Notes under the pieces: generated by a model
The model's input: only the letters and a program-made list of their open reading frames with translations
Databases searched by the model: none
Told to the model about the DNA's origin: nothing
Virus record (IMG/VR): IMGVR_UViG_3300008085_000025
Coordinates: 1 to 46,838 of that record
Strand: one strand, 5' to 3'
DNA length: 46,838 nucleotides
Origin: a virus
Taxonomy: Duplodnaviria; Heunggongvirae; Uroviricota; Caudoviricetes
Position numbers and translations under genes: made by a program
Part shown: piece by piece, positions 25,169-33,009 of the stretch
Position numbering within the stretch: position 1 is the first letter of the stretch
Layout of the letters: each line of letters begins with the position of its first letter

Positions 25169-25714
25169 GTGATTAGTGATTTTGACCAAACAAGTGGAGA
25201 TCTTACGGAAAAAGAAGATGCTCCTACCATCAAAAAGGTGAAAGAGAAACGGGGGCACGCCTTAGAAAAATTCTTTAACGTCCCAGAAGAGAGTACGGAG
25301 ATGGAACGAGTCCTTGTCTCTTACCCCCTTAAGAAATCTGGGGATTATGACGATAAAGACTCCGAGATAGAGAAAGAATTTCATGATGTTTTCAGAAGAG
25401 CCATGGAAGGATACGAATCTTTATCTGATATATTAGACAAGGTGGAACCTAAGTACAGAGCAAGAATTGCTGAAGTCGCAGCAACATACCTCAACACTGC
25501 TTTGAATGCTTCTACAAAGAGGGCCGGACAAAAAGAATCAATTCATAAAATAAAACAGAAACAACAAGAAATAGACAAGAAAGCATCGGGATCTAGAACT
25601 ACAAACAATATTGTCTTTAACGGTGATCGAAACGAGTTTTTGAAATTTCTTCGTGGCGACAAAGAAGAAAGAGAACCCATCGACATAACACCAGACCCAG
25701 ACAGTAACGATTGA
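25169..25714 (+). CDS. gp16: Terminase small subunit (T4 gp16-like)
   Basis: Helical core with ARIAEV; C-terminal TTNNIVFNGDRNEFLKFL matches the gp16 TNN..F.G...EL.K pattern; late promoter; upstream of TerL. Confidence 0.7.
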   Translation: MISDFDQTSGDLTEKEDAPTIKKVKEKRGHALEKFFNVPEESTEMERVLVSYPLKKSGDYDDKDSEIEKEFHDVFRRAMEGYESLSDILDKVEPKYRARIAEVAATYLNTALNASTKRAGQKESIHKIKQKQQEIDKKASGSRTTNNIVFNGDRNEFLKFLRGDKEEREPIDITPDPDSND

Positions 25715-25767: not shown

Positions 25768-27474
25768 ATGAGCAAAAGATTTGAAAATACGGAAGACTTT
25801 ATTGCAAAGTATAAAGTAGCACACACCAACAAATTGAAGTTAGAAGAATTTGCTTGGTTAATGGGAATAAAACCAAAAAGTGTCGCAAGACGAAAGCTTT
25901 CAGTAAAGCATCATTCTGGTTTCGAACTACCAGAACTTTCTCGCTATGAGCCCAATGTTAAAAAGTCTCATGCAATGAGACCGAGTGATGAAGACATCAA
26001 CAATTATGAAGTAGGTTTGGCCAAAATACAAAAAACCCAAGGCAAATTTGTCATGGAAGTTCACGAAAATGTGAATAAGAAAAAGAAAGCTACTTACATA
26101 GTCACTTCGGCCCAGAACGCAACACCGGTTCATGAAAATTTTCTTAAGTGTCTCGAAAATTACGCACAAATTAACGATGCACAAATTATGGTCATCCCGT
26201 ATCGATATAGAAATCCTACATCGATATGGAATTTCAACAACACCGACCATGAATGGTGGGATTCGAAGCTAAAAAACTACACACTTGAAAATCATATAAA
26301 GCTAAATGATCATCTTCGTGTTATGGCACAGATTTCAATTCAGCCCACGGCAACCAGACCGTTGTCCGGATTCGATCATGTGACCGGTCAGGATTCTGCC
26401 ATATTCGGACACCCCTCTATCGAACAAAAAACGATTCCGACTCCAGCACAGAAGCTTCCTAAGATATTGACAAGCACTGGTGCTGTTACCACACCAAACT
26501 ATACAGACTCCAAAGCAGGGCACAAAGGGGAGTTTAATCACTGTTTAGCTGCGGTAGTAGTAGAAATAGAGGGCGATCGTTTTTACATTCGGCATGTCCA
26601 CGGTGACCGGCATACCGGAGCGTTCTATGACAAGGATACCCTTTACACTATCGAAGGCGCTGAGAACGGCCACAGGGTCGCTGCTCTGGTGACCGGTGAT
26701 ATCCATGCAGAGTTTCATGATCCTTCTGTGGAAGCCGCCACATATACAGACAAAAACTCGATTATGAACGTTTTAAATCCCGAAGTGTGGGTTCTTCATG
26801 ATCTTGAGGATTTTTATCGCAGAAATCACCACCACCGAGGCAACGACATCATTGCTTTTGGGAAACATCATTATGGAAGGAACAATGTAGAAGACGGTTT
26901 GCAGATTTCCGCAGATTTTGTTGATCGACATTCCAGAAAAAATATGGTTAATTTGATAGTAAAATCCAATCATGATGAAGCGCTTGATAGATGGCTGGGG
27001 GAAGCTGATCCTAAATCCGATCCGGAGAATGCCGTTCTGTATCACTACCTAAAGTATCACCAGTACAAGAGTGTACGGATGAGCCGAACCGGTTTTAAAA
27101 GTTTTGATCCTTTCAAGTTTTGGTGCGAAAACCCGGAGTCCCGTCCCGGTTTGCGAAATATAGAAAATACACATTTCTTGGAACGCGATGAGTCTTTCGT
27201 TATTGCTGGGATCGAGATCGGGTTCCATGGGGACAAGGGTCCCAATGGTGCAAGAGGTAGTATTAATAACTTTTCCAAAATCGGGCCAAAGACGATCATA
27301 GGTCACAGTCACTCTCCGGGAATTTTTCATGGGACATATCAGGTTGGGGTCAGTGCTTATACAGACCTAGAATATGCTTCCGGTCCAAGCAGTTGGATGC
27401 AAACCCACTGTGTAGTTTATCCAGACGGTTCAAGAACTCTAATTCATATTGTAAAGGGTAAGTGGACGTTCTAA
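25768..27474 (+). CDS. Metallophosphoesterase-fold nuclease, T5 A1-like, with N-terminal HTH-like segment
   Basis: TSAQNATPVH, GDIH, HD.ED, SNHD, GFHGDKG.NGARGS, GHSHSPG, GPSSW..TH, GKW end. Confidence 0.65.
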   Translation: MSKRFENTEDFIAKYKVAHTNKLKLEEFAWLMGIKPKSVARRKLSVKHHSGFELPELSRYEPNVKKSHAMRPSDEDINNYEVGLAKIQKTQGKFVMEVHENVNKKKKATYIVTSAQNATPVHENFLKCLENYAQINDAQIMVIPYRYRNPTSIWNFNNTDHEWWDSKLKNYTLENHIKLNDHLRVMAQISIQPTATRPLSGFDHVTGQDSAIFGHPSIEQKTIPTPAQKLPKILTSTGAVTTPNYTDSKAGHKGEFNHCLAAVVVEIEGDRFYIRHVHGDRHTGAFYDKDTLYTIEGAENGHRVAALVTGDIHAEFHDPSVEAATYTDKNSIMNVLNPEVWVLHDLEDFYRRNHHHRGNDIIAFGKHHYGRNNVEDGLQISADFVDRHSRKNMVNLIVKSNHDEALDRWLGEADPKSDPENAVLYHYLKYHQYKSVRMSRTGFKSFDPFKFWCENPESRPGLRNIENTHFLERDESFVIAGIEIGFHGDKGPNGARGSINNFSKIGPKTIIGHSHSPGIFHGTYQVGVSAYTDLEYASGPSSWMQTHCVVYPDGSRTLIHIVKGKWTF

Positions 27475-27511
27475 TGGGTCACCCGGCTATAAAGAGGATA
27501 AGGGAGATTGT

Positions 27512-27521
27512 GGGGGGGGGG
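27512..27521 (+). repeat. G10 homopolymer at the frame break
   Basis: 10 consecutive G; G9 would join ATG 27474 to ORF 27508. Confidence 0.9.
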
Positions 27522-28029
27522 AGTCGAATGTGGAAGCGATGTTGCAGATTTCCTCCGCTCTTACATGAATATAAATCCTTCACCTCTACAGATTAGGATA
27601 TTGCATCATTTGTCGAAAAACAATATGAGTGGGGTTGCAGGGCCGAGGGCATCAGGCATTACTACCGCAGTACTAGGACATTTGCTATATAATTTTGTCG
27701 ATAAAAACCATCAAACAATTGTGCTAATGGCCAACAACATGCAATCGGCGAAACACAATTTAACAATTTTCAGAGATATGATGTTGTCGATTAACCATCA
27801 ATATATTGATATCAATACGAACATCAAATGCACCAAATGGGGACTAAAACTAATTAACGGTTCTAGGGTAATGGCTACAAACACGGTGCGTTCTTTCGAG
27901 GGAGCACACATTACACATTTGTTTGTAGACGACTTCTACAAGTATAATTATAGAGACGGTTCAGAACTTTTAGATTGTATATACCCTGTGATGGCACGTA
28001 ACAATGGTCAAATTATTTTAGGGTCAACG

Positions 28030-28248
28030 GGTGGTACGGTTCCTGTGAGCAGTAATATATTCCCTACATTACAAGTGTAACCCGTTTTTTCATATTATAC
28101 TATTTCTCGTAAATATCTTTAGAGATGATATAGATGTGAAAACGGTGATAACCCTATAACTATATAAGTGTGCAGCCGACCCAAATTATTTCATCGAGCG
28201 TCTCGCAGCAGGAATCCCCTCCCTAAAGTGAGGGGGGGGGGTGTCGAG
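28030..28248 (+). mobile_element. Non-autonomous IS200/IS605-like insert (right end / TnpB omega-RNA-like scaffold); boundaries approximate
   Basis: 3' end GCAGCAGGAATCCCCTCCC-TAAA-GTGAGGGG...GGTGTCGA resembles the IS605-group right end (GAAGCAGGAATCCCC-hairpin-GGGGAGGATGTCAA); contains stop codons and separates two in-frame halves of the TerL paralog; no tnpA or tnpB; left end not identified. Confidence 0.5.
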
Positions 28249-28442
28249 ACAAGTTGTTTGTCCCGTAACGAAGGGGATTTGTTTGAGGAAATGTGGAACA
28301 ATGGGTTGAGTGAAGGTTCTCCAATGAATTCTATAAAGATCTCTTGGGACACCGTCCCATATAGAGACGAAGAGTTTAAACGACGCACGATTGACGCTAT
28401 AGGCTTAGACCAGTGGAATAAAGAGTATGAGTTTTGGGTGTA

Positions 28443-28717
28443 GAGCATGGCTATAAGAAACTGGTAACTTTTGTGGATCGTAGATGGTCTACTGGAGATT
28501 TGTATACACAAATAGTTTCATTTTATCTAAGTCAATTGAACCGGATTATTATTTCTGCAAAAACGACATACGCCTACACAAATTCAATCTGAGAAACTCC
28601 CCATCTGAAATAAACAAAGATTGTTCCATAAACGAGGCAGCAATGGCTTTGGGGTATTTAAAAATTTGGGATTGCGGTAAATTAAAATTCGAAAAAGTGT
28701 TGTTGCCAAGGTCATAG
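28443..28717 (+). pseudogene. Frameshifted C-terminal remnant of a Hef-like homing endonuclease
   Basis: Frame 28443 KLVTFVDRRWSTGDLYTQI, a 1-nt loss at about 28515, then frame 28484 FILSKSIEPDYYF...RLHKFNLR...GYLKIWDCGKLKFE. Confidence 0.75.
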
Positions 28718-28729
28718 AATTTATATAGA

Positions 28730-28737
28730 ACTAAATA
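28730..28737 (+). promoter_or_regulatory. Late promoter variant ACTAAATA
   Basis: Upstream of TerL. Confidence 0.5.
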
Positions 28738-28748
28738 ATTGAGATGAC

Positions 28749-31700
28749 TTGTCCCATTTGTTTATGAGTAGAAGAAGTAACCCAAGACTTAAAAAAGCTT
28801 TCTCCGAGCAGTCCTATACAGTAGAACAAGCACAAGAGTTAATGAAATGTGCCAGAGACCCGGTTTATTTCATTACAAACTATGTGTTTATCAAACACCC
28901 GGTTAGGGGACAGATCAAGTTCTCCATGTATGATTATCAACAAAATATGGTCAGACAATTTGAAAAGAATAGATACAATATTGTTCTAGCATCTAGACAG
29001 GTTGGTAAGACTGAAACATCTGCGGCATATCTACTCTGGTACGCCCTATTCAACGAAGAGAAGATGGTGTTGATTCTTTCCAATAAATCCGATGGCGCTA
29101 AAGAGATTATATCCAAGATTCAAAACGCTTATGAAGAATTGCCACATTGGCTGAAGCCGGGGATCGATGATGATTCTTGGAATAAGCATGAATGTAGGTT
29201 TGACAACAAGTCTAGAATTCTTGCTGGTGCCACTTCTGCCGATTCTGCCCGTGGTCTTGCTATCAGTCTTTTGTATCTTGACGAGTTCGCATTTGTAAAG
29301 ACACACTTACAGGAAGAGTTCTGGACTTCGGTTTTACCAACTCTATCTTGTTTGTCGGGTGATACTTTAATCTTTACACAAGACGGTTTGAAAGAAATAG
29401 AAGAATTCCACAAGGAAAAAAATGTGGGAGACTATTTTGAGATAAAAGGCTTGGCCACATGGGGGATCGGTGGAAGAGAACGTGTTTCCCATGGTTATGT
29501 TAGTCCGGAATCTGAAACCCAAATCATTACAAATCTTTGGGGGATGGAGGTGGAAGCCACGCTCAAACACCCGTTTTGGGTTGCTGGGCCGGATGGTCCA
29601 TTCATGAAACCCAATCAAGAATTATCAGAAAAAGACTATATTCGTGTAGATTCTGGAATGAACATGTGGGGTAATAACACATTGAAACCAGAGCATGCAT
29701 ATATGCTAGGTGGTTATATTGCAGAGGGTTGGACGCAGAAGAAACACACAACAGGTAAAGCATACAGTATTCTGGTCTCGAATACAGATGACGAATTCAG
29801 AGATGTATATTTAAACTCTAATTTGATAAAGGAATTTACACAACATAGTCAAGAATCTCATAAGTTGGTTTGTAGTTCTCTAGAGTTGGTAGAAACTTTT
29901 GAGAGTTGGGGCGTTGACGTATACGCGAAATGTTACGAGAAAACCACCCCAAAGACTATTTTTACTAGTTCTAAAGATACCGTAACAAACTATTTAGCAG
30001 GACTTTTCGATGGAGACGGCTCCATTACAGATCGTTCTATAAACTTAACAAGCACCAGCAAGAAGTTGCTAAAAGAAACACAATTATTACTATTGAATAT
30101 GGGAATCATCAGTAGAGTATATATTAATGATGGTACTAAAAAGAGGCCAAGAAGAATCGCCAAAAACAACAGTGTTACTCAAACCTGTAGAGACTCGTAT
30201 TCTCTCAATATACCGTTGTCGCAGTATGAGTTGTTTAAACAAAACATACCCATACGAATACAAAGAAAAATCGATAAACTAAATCACATCATTTCAAATA
30301 GAAAGCAAGATGACTACAAACAGTTCACAATCCCTTGTGATGTTATTACACCAACAATAAGAAAGATTTTGAAAGAATGCAATCTTACGATAGGAAGAGC
30401 GAGAACCGAGTATAACATTCGCTTGGATAAAATACTGGACGGGAAATCTGGTAGAGTCTGTACCAACCAAAAATTTAATCTATTTTCCGATATGGTGAAA
30501 AAAGAAAATAGTGTTGTTTGGGAAAAACATAAATCATTTTGGGATGGATATTTGGTGAAAACCTCATGGGTGAAAATAAAAAAAATGACTCCGTCTTATC
30601 AGAAAAAGACCTATGATTTTACTGTTCCCGGATCACATTCATTTTTACAGTCCGGGTTCATGGGGTCAAATACAGGTGGTTCATGTATCATTTCAAGCAC
30701 CCCAAATGGCAACAGCAATCGATTTGCACAAATGTGGAGAGAGGCAAACAATGATGGGGAATTTGTTCCTACACATGTTCCGTGGAACGCTCCTCCGGGT
30801 CGAGATGAAGATTTCAAAAAGCAACAGATTAGCATCCTTGGAAAAAGAAAATGGCTTCAAGAGTATGAGTGTTGTCATGGAGATACATTAATTGAGCTTT
30901 CTAATTCAGATGGTACTAGGTTTGTCAAGGTGCCAATTTGCATGGCTTACGAGGCATTGGAACGGGACGTTGATATATTTGACATGAATCCCGGAATTCT
31001 TACAGGAAAGTATGTAGTTTCCCCACTAGACGGGAAAAAATATTGTAGATGTAACGGCCAATTTTTTAAACATATAAAAAGCTACGGTTATTGTTCGTAT
31101 CAAGATTTTTTTGAATCATTATTTCCGGCCCACATAAAGTATTGCGGTTGTGGTAATAGGGCCAGTTTCAAGAATGCATCAATGTCGTACTATAGTGGAT
31201 GTGGCGAAATATTCTGTAGGAATAGAAATATATCATCTAGGAAGAAAAAGTTCACGAAAAAAGACTGGCAGGTTGTCGCAGACCGGTATAGAAAAACAAT
31301 GTCTAAAAAAGAACCAGATGAAATAAGAGAGATTATAGAGCGAAGAACGAAAAATGGACACGCGAATTGCAGCTACAAAAAATCGGTAACCAAGAGGCGA
31401 AAAACCTGTACTGAACGCCATGGTAGTTCCGTTTATAATAATCCTAGCAAAATATCTTATACCAAGAAAAATTGGACAAAAGAAAAAAAGGAAGAATTTT
31501 TGTCAAGACTCAAGGAGTCTCTCGGCGGGAGATGGTTGAATGACTATCATGACGAAAAAATGTATAAAAGACGGAGAAAAACTTTAGAAGAAAGTGGGAG
31601 TGTTGTCCCAATAGAAGCATTATCCGAGTGGGAGTTGTATCGAAATGAAGTTCGAAATCTCACAAAAAGGAATTACAGAAAATTCAAAAAGATTATTAAT

Positions 31701-31892
31701 CCAAATAATTTGCCTAGAGGAAACGGAAGAGGCAAATATCATCTCGATCATATAATTCCCGTTTTATACGGTTTTTTGAATGATGTCCCTGTAGAAGAAA
31801 TGGCCGGTGTGGATAACTTACAAATGTTGTTGGATAAAGATAACAGGAAGAAATCGTATAAGTACGAGGGGGTATACGATGGTCAAGAATGA
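28749..31892 (+). CDS. gp17: Terminase large subunit, N-terminal (ATPase) part: extein, cis intein, split-intein N-half, HNH endonuclease
   Basis: KCARDPVYF, ASRQVGKT (Walker A), LYLDEFAF (Walker B), SSTPNG, QEYE; start may be ATG 28764. Confidence 0.95.
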   Translation: MSHLFMSRRSNPRLKKAFSEQSYTVEQAQELMKCARDPVYFITNYVFIKHPVRGQIKFSMYDYQQNMVRQFEKNRYNIVLASRQVGKTETSAAYLLWYALFNEEKMVLILSNKSDGAKEIISKIQNAYEELPHWLKPGIDDDSWNKHECRFDNKSRILAGATSADSARGLAISLLYLDEFAFVKTHLQEEFWTSVLPTLSCLSGDTLIFTQDGLKEIEEFHKEKNVGDYFEIKGLATWGIGGRERVSHGYVSPESETQIITNLWGMEVEATLKHPFWVAGPDGPFMKPNQELSEKDYIRVDSGMNMWGNNTLKPEHAYMLGGYIAEGWTQKKHTTGKAYSILVSNTDDEFRDVYLNSNLIKEFTQHSQESHKLVCSSLELVETFESWGVDVYAKCYEKTTPKTIFTSSKDTVTNYLAGLFDGDGSITDRSINLTSTSKKLLKETQLLLLNMGIISRVYINDGTKKRPRRIAKNNSVTQTCRDSYSLNIPLSQYELFKQNIPIRIQRKIDKLNHIISNRKQDDYKQFTIPCDVITPTIRKILKECNLTIGRARTEYNIRLDKILDGKSGRVCTNQKFNLFSDMVKKENSVVWEKHKSFWDGYLVKTSWVKIKKMTPSYQKKTYDFTVPGSHSFLQSGFMGSNTGGSCIISSTPNGNSNRFAQMWREANNDGEFVPTHVPWNAPPGRDEDFKKQQISILGKRKWLQEYECCHGDTLIELSNSDGTRFVKVPICMAYEALERDVDIFDMNPGILTGKYVVSPLDGKKYCRCNGQFFKHIKSYGYCSYQDFFESLFPAHIKYCGCGNRASFKNASMSYYSGCGEIFCRNRNISSRKKKFTKKDWQVVADRYRKTMSKKEPDEIREIIERRTKNGHANCSYKKSVTKRRKTCTERHGSSVYNNPSKISYTKKNWTKEKKEEFLSRLKESLGGRWLNDYHDEKMYKRRRKTLEESGSVVPIEALSEWELYRNEVRNLTKRNYRKFKKIINPNNLPRGNGRGKYHLDHIIPVLYGFLNDVPVEEMAGVDNLQMLLDKDNRKKSYKYEGVYDGQE
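29349..30671 (+). mobile_element. Cis intein (441 aa) with LAGLIDADG homing endonuclease
   Basis: PTLS|CLSGDT; block B TLKH; LGGYIAEG and LAGLFDGDG; YDFTV...GSN|TGG; splicing restores PTLSTGGSCIISSTPNG. Confidence 0.93.
30870..30968 (+). mobile_element. Split-intein N-fragment (about 33 aa, block A only)
   Basis: QEYE|CCHGDTLIEL...VPICMAYEALERD; the C-terminal limit is approximate because it runs into the HNH domain. Confidence 0.8.
30984..31892 (+). mobile_element. HNH homing endonuclease fused in frame to the split-intein N-half
   Basis: Cys-rich N-terminus (CRC, CGCG...C...C), basic KRRKTC.ERHG segment, C-terminal YHLDHIIP...NLQML...DNRKK. Confidence 0.8.
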
Positions 31893-32208
31893 TAAGGGAT
31901 GGAAGATACTCGCGAAAAACGGATTCGAATCTTTTGCCGGTATAGCCAATCAGGGTAAGAAGGAAATATTGGAAATTCGGTTTACAGACAAAACTTCGGT
32001 TAAGGTTTCGCTCGACCATGTACTGTTTAGCTTAGATTGTGAAGAAGTGTCGGCTAAAACTATAGTTTCAGGGGATAAAGTTCTTTCCACTGACCCAAAA
32101 CACCCAAAAACTGTTCAGGATGTTTTCGAAATAGATGGTGCAGAAACTTTTGATATTATAGAAACTGAAAGCAATACATATTTTTCAAACGGAATATTGA
32201 GTCATAAC
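31879..32208 (+). mobile_element. Split-intein C-fragment (blocks B, F, G)
   Basis: KILAKNGF..F.GI, block B SLDH, FDII, YFSNGILSHN|C(+1). Confidence 0.9.
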
Positions 32209-33009
32209 TGCCACTTTCTTTCATCAGACGTAACGTTGATTGACAACTTTGCACTCACCCAAATAGAGAAAAAGCTCGACGATTTATACAAGTCCAATGG
32301 TGGTGAGCCTATTATTGAAATGACGGTGGCTGACGTAGATTTTTTCAAAAAGCCCAAGAAGTCTCTCGCTTATATTGTCAGTGTTGACGTAAGTACGGGG
32401 TCTGGTAAGGACTATTCTGTAATACAAATAACCGAGTTCCCTACAATGCAGCAAGTTGGTCAGTTTAGGTCTAATCAGACTTCGGAAAAGTTTTTGTATT
32501 CAAAGTTGAAGAATATACTATTGTTCTTGGAACAGAACAGTAAAGAGGTATATTTTTCCGTAGAAAACAACGGTGTGGGGTCTAGCATTTTAGCGATGTA
32601 TGAATTCGATGATAGGCCGCCGACTAAGTCATATTTGATATCAGATTCCATAGGGAACAGGTTGGGTATAACAATGTCAGAGCAGGTAAAAAGGCGCACT
32701 GCATTGAAACTAAAATCCATGGTGGAGACTGAAGCCTACAAAATTCTTTGTCCTGTTTTAATTAACGAATTCAAAAATTACACAAGACAGGGCGCAACTT
32801 TCAAAGCTGAAGCAGGTGCGACGGATGACATCATTGCTTCTTTGTTGATCATGGTTCGAATTTTAGAAGAAATGGCAGATTTCAACCCATACGCATATGA
32901 GAAAGTTTATAACGCGAAGGGATATGATGATAAACAGGATGAATGGGAAGAAACTTTTGTAGAAAACCCGAATAGTCTGGATGATGCACCAATGCCTATT
33001 GTATTTTGA
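31879..33009 (+). CDS. gp17: Terminase large subunit, C-terminal (nuclease) part, preceded by a 110-aa split-intein C-fragment
   Basis: GAGG SD and ATG 31879; after SHN|CHFL come VDVSTGSGKDYS, VENNGVG and DDII RNase-H-like nuclease motifs. Confidence 0.92.
   Translation: MVKNDKGWKILAKNGFESFAGIANQGKKEILEIRFTDKTSVKVSLDHVLFSLDCEEVSAKTIVSGDKVLSTDPKHPKTVQDVFEIDGAETFDIIETESNTYFSNGILSHNCHFLSSDVTLIDNFALTQIEKKLDDLYKSNGGEPIIEMTVADVDFFKKPKKSLAYIVSVDVSTGSGKDYSVIQITEFPTMQQVGQFRSNQTSEKFLYSKLKNILLFLEQNSKEVYFSVENNGVGSSILAMYEFDDRPPTKSYLISDSIGNRLGITMSEQVKRRTALKLKSMVETEAYKILCPVLINEFKNYTRQGATFKAEAGATDDIIASLLIMVRILEEMADFNPYAYEKVYNAKGYDDKQDEWEETFVENPNSLDDAPMPIVF

Follow-up and report, generated by a model that had tools for sequence, protein, structure and literature searches.

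A stand-alone terminase ATPase-core paralog without the Walker A lysine, encoded between the terminase genes of an uncultured phage

Between the genes for the small (TerS) and large (TerL) terminase subunits in the window, by which we mean the whole 46,838-nt stretch of DNA analyzed here, from an uncultured T4-like jumbo phage, lie a gene for an A1-like DNA-transfer protein and a paralog of TerL (Table 1). The paralog is a complete stand-alone protein of ~201 aa, which goes back to subdomain I, the RecA-like core, of a T4-type large terminase. Its sequence predicts that it is unable to hydrolyze ATP, and it is probably a dispensable, non-catalytic mimic of TerL. The reading that we favor, with some reserve, is that of a ~201-aa core protein without the Walker A lysine ("Lys-less"), framed by a G tract and separate from a second TerL-like piece downstream (piece 2); this protein would serve as a binding mimic and modulator of packaging.

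Table 1. Features of the terminase region, with positions in the window.
Feature	Position	Strand	Remarks
TerS (small terminase subunit, T4 gp16-like)	25169..25714	+	phrog_445 'terminase small subunit', E 8.3e-13, profile positions 5-140/143
A1-like DNA-transfer protein gene	25768..27474	+	phrog_1745, E 1e-158
Lys-less TerL-ATPase paralog	27474..28080	+	~201 codons if the G tract is G9
G10 tract 1, followed by AGTCGAA	27512..27521	+	in the linker behind the conserved 12-aa N-terminus; sets the frame
AT-rich hairpin	28082..28150	+	directly 3' of the paralog stop; fold -17 kcal/mol, z -2.6
TerL-type ATPase-domain relic, C-terminal third (piece 2; motif-III strand to E-Y-E hinge)	28228..28443	+	no credible start codon
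G10 tract 2, followed by TGTCGAG	28232..28241	+	720 nt past tract 1, same phase; also encodes GGGVE
Hef-like homing endonuclease, frameshifted C-terminal remnant	28434..28717	+	~95 aa of ~540-600
Resident TerL	28749..33009	+	N-extein, LAGLIDADG intein, middle extein, HNH-split intein, nuclease domain

In a PHROG profile search, the best match of the paralog was phrog_5989, annotated 'terminase large subunit' (E 1.2e-11), and the families matched were all of TerL, with none of TerS. As the phage has a TerS gene elsewhere, the possibility that the paralog itself is the phage TerS was rejected; PF11053 was not found in the contig. The body of the paralog (piece 1, 27508-28077, frame 1) aligned with the N-domain of the resident TerL at 20% identity (BLASTP, E 4e-5). 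Its match to Pfam Terminase_6N (E 0.0028, 17.8 bits) lay under the gathering cut-off of 22, while a profile of the family aligned with the ATPase of T4 gp17 with an E-value of 2e-15. The AlphaFold model of the paralog (pLDDT 89.2, pTM 0.87) had the fold of gp17 subdomain I (Terminase_6N; PDB 2o0h, 3cpe), with structure 2o0h as its best PDB match (TM 0.78). The top PDB matches were to gp17 and the TerL proteins of P74-26, Sf6, HK97, and D6E, and thus to the terminase-type ASCE/RecA-like fold.

The motifs run in the same order in the paralog and gp17, with an adenine-contact Gln, a P-loop R-Q-x-G, the Asp of Walker B, and the S/T of motif III, and the P-loop Arg and Gly and the motif-III Ser-Thr are among the residues retained. 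In contrast, Lys166 of gp17 is replaced by Ile and Glu256 by Asp, so that Walker A reads G-I-T where gp17 and the resident TerL have G-K-T, and Walker B reads F-V-D-D where the resident TerL has L-Y-L-D-E. Unlike gp17, the paralog also lacks subdomain II and the RNase-H-like nuclease domain; its ORF closes at ~201 aa, and its C-terminal residues form a β-strand in the model. The earlier claims that the protein is derived from TerL, lacks a nuclease, and has lost both the Walker A lysine and the catalytic glutamate are thereby supported. Lys-less P-loops sometimes still bind nucleotide, and 'dead' is therefore to be read as a prediction only.

At its 5' end, the gene is joined to the A1-like gene, of which the TAA stop overlaps the paralog ATG (TAATG). 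This coupling, suspected from the start, was corroborated by P0006, a 201-aa protein from a near-identical contig that starts at the same ATG and stays open across the G tract. The N-terminus M-x-H-P-x-I-x-x-I-R is common to the homologs. In the window, however, tract 1 puts the conserved ATG (frame of 27474) out of frame with the paralog body (27508-28080) by one base, so that the gene is either switched off here or reliant on slippage. P0006 carries IVGGGVEC, the sequence expected from a G9 tract (read from the protein, not the DNA), and gene calls gave a 190-aa form, which fits G10, on 7 contigs versus the in-frame 201-aa form on 1. The tract thus seems to be G10 in most assemblies of this phage, so that full-length protein may be produced only rarely, although the difference in length may also reflect homopolymer assembly error. 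Other lengths of the tract were looked for by exact pattern in metagenome contigs, a set from which near-identical records seem to be missing, and none turned up. An assembly chimera at the poly-G was rejected, since both flanks of tract 1 are colinear with the closest relative, L003, which has no G run at this site, and since the protein recurs in independent assemblies. The two tracts are the only G runs of at least 7 in the 117.8-kb contig, and among the Lys-less paralogs the two G10-NGTCGA repeats occur only in this lineage. Poly-G contingency tracts are found in phase-variable genes of Campylobacter, Neisseria, and Haemophilus, and also in receptor-binding genes of Campylobacter phages. 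As in such loci, the tract lies early in the coding region and sets the frame through its length, and both out-of-frame and in-frame forms exist among near-identical contigs.

The paralog belongs to a diverse and widespread family, the genes of which are placed between TerS and TerL by the loci fetched from an uncultured clade of T4-like jumbo phages. We defined as Lys-less those proteins of 170-330 aa that keep the P-loop R-x-x-G and have both the Lys and the catalytic Glu replaced, a class that includes the paralog. Both residues were missing from 27 of the 40 short relatives; 4 lacked only the Lys, 2 only the Glu, and 7 kept both. All full-length TerLs retained the pair (8/8), and across short relatives and TerLs together, the P-loop Arg was kept in 46/48 and the Gly in 47/48. 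Judged from these alignments, the loss of the catalytic residues is a trait of the family rather than decay. The same motif pattern was seen in P0012, P0013, P0015, P0017, P0037, L010, L016, and L036, and the short members have N- and C-termini like those of the paralog, while some relatives differ from it in having a full ATPase domain or a ribbon-helix-helix (RHH) domain; the latter scored above the Pfam cut-off at the N-terminus of L036 paralog 1, P0025, and P0020. In each of the 4 fetched loci (L002, L010, L016, and L036), a Lys-less gene lies upstream of TerL, between it and the A1-like gene or TerS as in the window, and in L016 and L036 it adjoins TerL directly. The A1-like gene is syntenic in L002-L010. 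A quick tree, in which the Lys+/Lys- labels were partly wrong, suggests that the Lys-less paralogs have several origins. Word-indexed profile searches added no further members, a search of viral and metagenome contigs with piece 1, P0013, P0015, and P0021 gave no related locus, and among 50,697 phage records the paralog region had no blastn match, while tblastn with the protein retrieved only genuine TerLs (~23% identity).

Downstream of the paralog lie two remnants, of which piece 2, among the Lys-less paralogs, is found in this lineage only. Piece 2 (28168-28440 in the frame of piece 1) matched residues 643-707 of the phage's own TerL at 30% identity (E 8e-9), the TerLs of L005/L010 at 38-41%, and that of an Ochrobactrum phage at 42%. 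It also matched the C-terminus of P0037, a Lys-less protein of 267 aa, at 42% (E 3e-11), ending at most 1 residue from the end of that protein; a search for its donor found none. Piece 2 lies outside the paralog gene and is debris of another copy of the ATPase domain, joined to the decayed remains of a Hef-like homing endonuclease. The endonuclease remnant matched phrog_3339 (E 5.9e-9) and phrog_559 (E 1.2e-7) over only the last ~70 profile positions, and its 77-aa ORF recurs unchanged on 35 contigs. Against Rfam, the spacer (28081-28231) gave only a sub-threshold miRNA-like hairpin (E 0.02), and with no family match, a group I/II intron or a TnpB omega-RNA was rejected. A repeat was rejected as well, as the spacer does not occur elsewhere in the genome, and so was a terminator or promoter; at the DNA level it does not resemble the IS607 element of L008. 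Within the resident TerL, the HNH-gene split of the second intein appears as an ORF break at 31807-31892.

In the preliminary description, both pieces had been taken as parts of one gene, which when repaired would encode ~245 aa. According to this model, a single Lys-less paralog at 27474-28443 was split by an insert of ~170 nt, and the repaired protein would cover the complete ATPase domain as far as the hinge. The pieces indeed lie in one frame, Lys-less proteins with a full ATPase domain of 247-320 aa are known (P0037, P0021, P0030, L016, and L010), and piece 2 matches the P0037 C-terminus including the position of the stop. It was also correctly seen that paralog sequence ends where the split intein of TerL begins, as piece 2 stops at the E-Y-E motif. 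Each piece aligns with TerL as described, but their homology overlaps, and the proposed colinearity of the two as halves of one gene is not confirmed: The motif-III strand is present twice, as IILGST followed by N-x-F in piece 1 and as S-C-L-S followed by D-L-F in piece 2. The stop at 28078 was retained in 10/10 near-identical cluster members, all of which end in PTLQV, and the nearest homologs of piece 1 share its exact end, with P0012, P0013, P0015, and P0017 (201-214 aa, 27-34% identity) terminating at the same aligned position in L-x-x-L-x-[LV]. In the syntenic relative L002, the A1-like gene is followed by a 214-aa homolog, 112 nt, and an intein-free TerL ortholog of 527 aa, and piece 2 is missing entirely. 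The cluster, the homologs, and L002 all indicate that the stop is native, and the paralog is therefore ~201 aa rather than 245, leaving the single-gene model very unlikely.

Alternatively, the whole of 27474-28749 could be non-functional debris of a decaying duplicate in a mobile-element hotspot. In line with this, the G10 frameshift is present here and in most other contigs, relics adjoin the gene (piece 2 and the frameshifted endonuclease), and homologs are broken in some relatives, with the P-loop deleted in those of L005/L006 and an IS607-type element interrupting that of L008. The gene has been lost from several relatives and is thus non-essential. The body ORF of ~190 codons is nevertheless intact and its predicted fold confident, the frameshift falls within a mutable homopolymer, with an in-frame form present on one contig, and length, termini, and motif pattern are kept across homologs at 27-38% identity. 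Moreover, the ortholog check proposed at the outset yielded intact homologs of 201-214 aa and, against L003, a dN/dS of ~0.19 (72 codons, with dS near saturation), which is not neutral. The systematic loss of residues (both in 27/40 relatives), the purifying selection, and the confident fold argue for repurposing as a pseudo-ATPase, as had been proposed, and against random decay, and we regard decay of the whole region as unlikely.

A pseudo-ATPase of this kind would act through binding, by mimicking the ATPase core of TerL. Most likely it would modulate the packaging machinery without being indispensable to it, associating, e.g., with TerL, TerS, or DNA; alternatively, it could interfere with factors that recognize TerL. 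The RHH domains of some relatives and the Lys-less copies adjoining TerL in L016 and L036 speak for a connection to DNA and packaging. The preliminary description had named a decoy for terminase-sensing immunity as one option. Published work has shown that Avs2 can sense ATPase-only TerL-like proteins, via bound ATP, and that the ATPase domain by itself is enough to activate EcAvs2 and Upx, which makes a decoy conceivable and immune evasion equally compatible. The dead core could mimic TerL to Avs1-3 or Upx and titrate them without activation, or the Lys could have been lost to escape sensing, with the poly-G as an on/off switch; the fast evolution, recurrent loss, and hypervariable tract of the gene would fit either variant. 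However, the RHH-fused relatives suggest that DNA, rather than a sensor, is what these proteins bind. SeAvs3, in addition, recognizes residues of the active site and makes extensive contacts with the nuclease domain, whereas the paralog has no nuclease domain and lacks two catalytic residues. On balance, we find a decoy or evader improbable, and a role as packaging regulator would be at least as likely as one as Avs decoy. We give a similarly small chance to a broader scenario, in which repeated TerL duplication gave rise to a dead core mimic that is phase-variable through its poly-G and would antagonize or escape Avs2/Upx-type immunity, or else poison the packaging motors of rival phages or divert them.

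No direct description of dead, truncated, or paralogous terminases was found in the literature. T4 vs.8 (NP_049732, 219 aa, uncharacterized) has been published as a homolog of the T4 terminase ATPase domain, and like the paralog it is of similar size, consists of the ATPase core only, and ends soon past a motif-III-like strand. Unlike the paralog, it keeps G-K-S and D-E, and its gene lies elsewhere in the genome, beside denV. The family aligned only weakly with vs.8 (phrog_1488; hhalign probability 30%, E 5e-4, 92 columns), and P0006 had no match to phrog_1488 in the PHROG search; given this weak likeness, we make no claim of orthology.

Large phages repeatedly carry the terminase ATPase core as a protein of its own, T4 vs.8 being one example. 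The family described here adds a whole branch that lacks both hydrolysis residues while the remaining nucleotide pocket is kept. Placed between TerS and TerL, this branch evolves ~10x faster than its neighbors. Between the window and L002, the paralog is 34-35% identical, compared with 90% for TerL and 77% for the A1-like gene. The terminase region as a whole exemplifies churn by inteins, homing endonucleases, and IS607/TnpB elements. If the Lys-less proteins modulate packaging or engage terminase sensors, they would constitute a new type of accessory factor in phages.

The window covers the initial 46.8 kb of an IMG/VR viral contig that is 117.8 kb long, has 40% G+C and is 34% complete according to CheckV. 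Near-identical proteins occur on contigs of up to 257 kb, so the source is an uncultured jumbo phage of the T4 type. Its small terminase (TerS) and large terminase (TerL) genes are kept apart by an A1-like gene and the paralog studied here; whereas gp16 and gp17 are classically adjacent in T4, here some 3 kb of accessory DNA lies between the two. The exact T4 late-promoter octamer TATAAATA is present seven times in the window. A scan found no exact copy between 18292 and 39950, suggesting that the terminase module may lack a canonical late promoter of its own.

Features of the terminase region in the window and in related loci (L numbers) of uncultured T4-like phages
Feature	Position	Remarks
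TerS	25169-25714	phrog_445, E 8e-13
A1-like DNA-transfer protein	25768-27474	phrog_1745
Region under study (paralog and relic)	27474-28443	between A1-like gene and endonuclease remnant
Paralog body (piece 1)	27508-28077
G10 repeats, each continuing as N-GTCGA-R	27512-27528, 28232-28248	720 nt apart, same codon phase
Paralog stop	28078-28080
Hairpin	28082-28150	z -2.6
Piece 2	28168-28440	same frame as piece 1; TerL-like stretch 28228-28443
Hef-like homing endonuclease remnant	28434-28717	frameshifted; matches just the C-terminal positions of the phrog_3339 and phrog_559 profiles
Resident TerL	from 28749	LAGLIDADG intein, and second intein split by HNH gene
Tandem paralogs, upstream of TerL	L036:2783-4436	first keeps D-E, lacks Lys; second has no recognisable Walker motifs
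IS607-type element	L008:8135-9833	right after Lys-less TerL-like fragment, between A1-like gene and TerL
Insertion (~1 kb) in A1-like gene	L008:6533-7488, L003:6072-7057	after residue 516
Insertion (about 2 kb) in TerL	L005:8233-10279 (also L006)	exactly at Walker B (L-L-Y-C)
V-D-[FY] module (~50 aa)	L010:6697-6850	fused to paralog N-terminus
V-D-[FY] module, separate small ORF	L002:5843-6001, L008:9859-10104

The paralog body resembles the N-terminal domain of the resident TerL (20% identity, BLASTP E 4e-5), and matches phrog_5989 (E 1.2e-11) and, under the family cut-off, Pfam Terminase_6N (E 0.0028). Its Walker A motif reads G-I-T where TerL has G-K-T, and its Walker B motif V-D-D where TerL has L-D-E. 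These substitutions, already listed in the preliminary description, are real: they are seen in the alignment, and a profile of the family matches T4 gp17 (E 2e-15) with the substituted positions at Lys166 and Glu256, both indispensable by T4 genetics. The structural comparison with gp17 that had been proposed gave a confident AlphaFold model (pLDDT 89.2, pTM 0.87), in which the C-terminal residues form a β-strand. It matches best (TM 0.78) the ATPase domain of gp17, which is also the nearest relative with a solved structure; other TerLs come next. The model shows the paralog as a predicted folded TerL ATPase core without the catalytic Lys and Glu and without a nuclease.

In all ten members of its 90%-identity cluster (from JGI, ENA and Logan assemblies), the protein ends in PTLQV-stop. 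An exhaustive phmmer search yielded 48 relatives; the closest (P0012, P0013, P0015 and P0017; 201-214 aa, 27-34% identity) share the N-terminal motif M-x-H-P-x-I-x-x-I-R and stop at the aligned end of the paralog with L-x-x-L-x-[LV]. In the syntenic locus L002 (A1-like gene 77% and TerL N-terminal part 90% identical), 112 nt separate a 214-aa homologue from the downstream TerL, which is 527 aa long and intein-free, and both piece 2 and the endonuclease remnant are absent. The cluster-wide end, the end shared among homologues, the confident fold and the layout of L002 establish that the stop is native and that the protein is about 201 aa long.

A single gene of about 245 aa spanning both pieces, as originally suggested, is thus not supported, also because piece 2 repeats part of piece 1. 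Its homology starts at the G-G preceding the motif-III strand, a strand therefore present twice (as IILGST, then N-I-F in piece 1). This point corresponds to residue 197 of the L002 TerL, the site where intein 1 is inserted in the resident TerL. The reported break of the match at the split intein does hold, since piece 2 ends at E-Y-E, where that intein starts. Piece 2 matches residues 643-707 of its own TerL at 30% identity (E 8e-9), the L002 TerL at 32%, the L005/L010 TerLs at 38-41%, and both an Ochrobactrum phage TerL and the C-terminus of P0037, a 267-aa Lys-less protein, at 42% (E 3e-11 for the latter). The donor search found none closer than these. The alignment reaches to within one residue of the end of P0037, and Lys-less paralogs that span the full domain as a rule end 2-13 residues past the E-[YF] hinge. 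We read piece 2 as what probably remains of the 3' end of another ATPase-domain copy, whose source was a full-domain paralog or else a foreign TerL. It is apparently joined by deletion to the Hef-like endonuclease tail, and the two together would make up some 570 nt of inserted DNA specific to this lineage. Since 35 contigs share an identical remnant ORF, the relic is stable in the population. Another Hef-like endonuclease, 49% identical to the remnant, lies in the TerL insertion of L005 and L006.

Loss of the catalytic residues had been described as targeted rather than random, and across the relatives it is indeed systematic. In a MAFFT alignment of hits and locus proteins, a sample biased by a query that is itself Lys-less, 27 of 40 short proteins (under 450 aa) lack both Lys and Glu, 4 lack only Lys, 2 lack only Glu and 7 keep both; all 8 full-length TerLs keep both. 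The rest of the pocket is retained: the P-loop Arg in 46/48 aligned proteins, the P-loop Gly in 47/48 and the adenine-contact Gln in 41/48. Such correlated loss, with the pocket otherwise kept, is unlike what random decay would produce. In a quick tree, weakly supported and with some wrong tip labels, the Lys-less proteins did not appear to form one clade, which suggests that they may not have a single origin.

Compared with the closest relative, L003, the first 72 codons of the paralog are 64% identical (dN 0.25, dS 1.34), and the dN/dS of 0.19, a check that had been called for, indicates constraint; the A1-like gene product is 98% identical over its C-terminal 53 aa. Compared with L002, the paralog is 35% identical, versus 90% for the TerL N-terminal part (dN/dS 0.027). 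L010 carries an intact version of 319 codons, and the same paralog has a frameshifting deletion within the P-loop in L005 and L006. Between L010 and L005, dS is 1.5 in the paralog body versus 0.19 in the flanking TerL, which indicates that the allele was replaced by recombination. Elsewhere, an IS607-type element (serine recombinase and TnpB) cuts a paralog fragment in L008, and a 247-aa version directly abuts TerL in L016. Constrained, fast-evolving, mosaic and repeatedly lost, the gene has, by these comparisons, the profile of an accessory gene.

The A1-like insertion in L008 looks like an intein, as the reading frame stays open across it and it begins with Cys after G-H-S-H. No counterpart of the V-D-[FY] ... 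F-P-[ED] ... W/F-I-V module was seen within the window.

In the whole 117.8-kb contig, runs of at least seven G occur just twice, each time as a G10 encoding G-G-G-V-E. Tract 1 directly follows the conserved 12-residue N-terminus of the paralog, and with G10 the ATG at 27474 reaches a dead end after 40 codons. Seven contigs carry the G10-type gene call; in one contig, cluster member P0006 reads I-V-G-G-G-V-E-C across the tract, from which we infer G9. L003 has no G run there. An assembly join at tract 1 was rejected, both flanks being colinear with L003; the tract may be a contingency switch, a slippage site or a fixed lesion. The 16-17-nt motif recurs at the start of the relic, so that the repeats flank the paralog body and the hairpin, an arrangement that would fit a repair scar or the replacement of a cassette.

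Among published stand-alone proteins, the nearest relative is T4 vs.8, a TerL-like ATPase that keeps its motifs; its similarity to the Lys-less family is weak. Among cultured phages, tblastn gave genuine TerLs only, and clusters of short Terminase_6N proteins are present in PHROG and the ESM Atlas. The first tandem paralog of L036 has an N-terminal DNA-binding RHH_1 domain (above the Pfam cut-off); RHH_1 is also found in P0025, and a NikA-like RHH in P0020. TerS is encoded separately from the paralog.

The paralog would act through binding, as a non-hydrolysing mimic of TerL. Its position within the TerS-TerL module and its RHH-fused relatives favour a packaging- or DNA-linked role, while its fast evolution, recurrent loss and G tract favour a dispensable, possibly conflict-related one. 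According to a 2026 preprint, EcAvs2 and Upx are activated by the ATPase domain alone, T4 vs.8 is toxic together with EcAvs2, and terminase-bound ATP takes part in recognition. It is therefore conceivable that the paralog serves as an immune decoy, and equally conceivable that it evades sensing.
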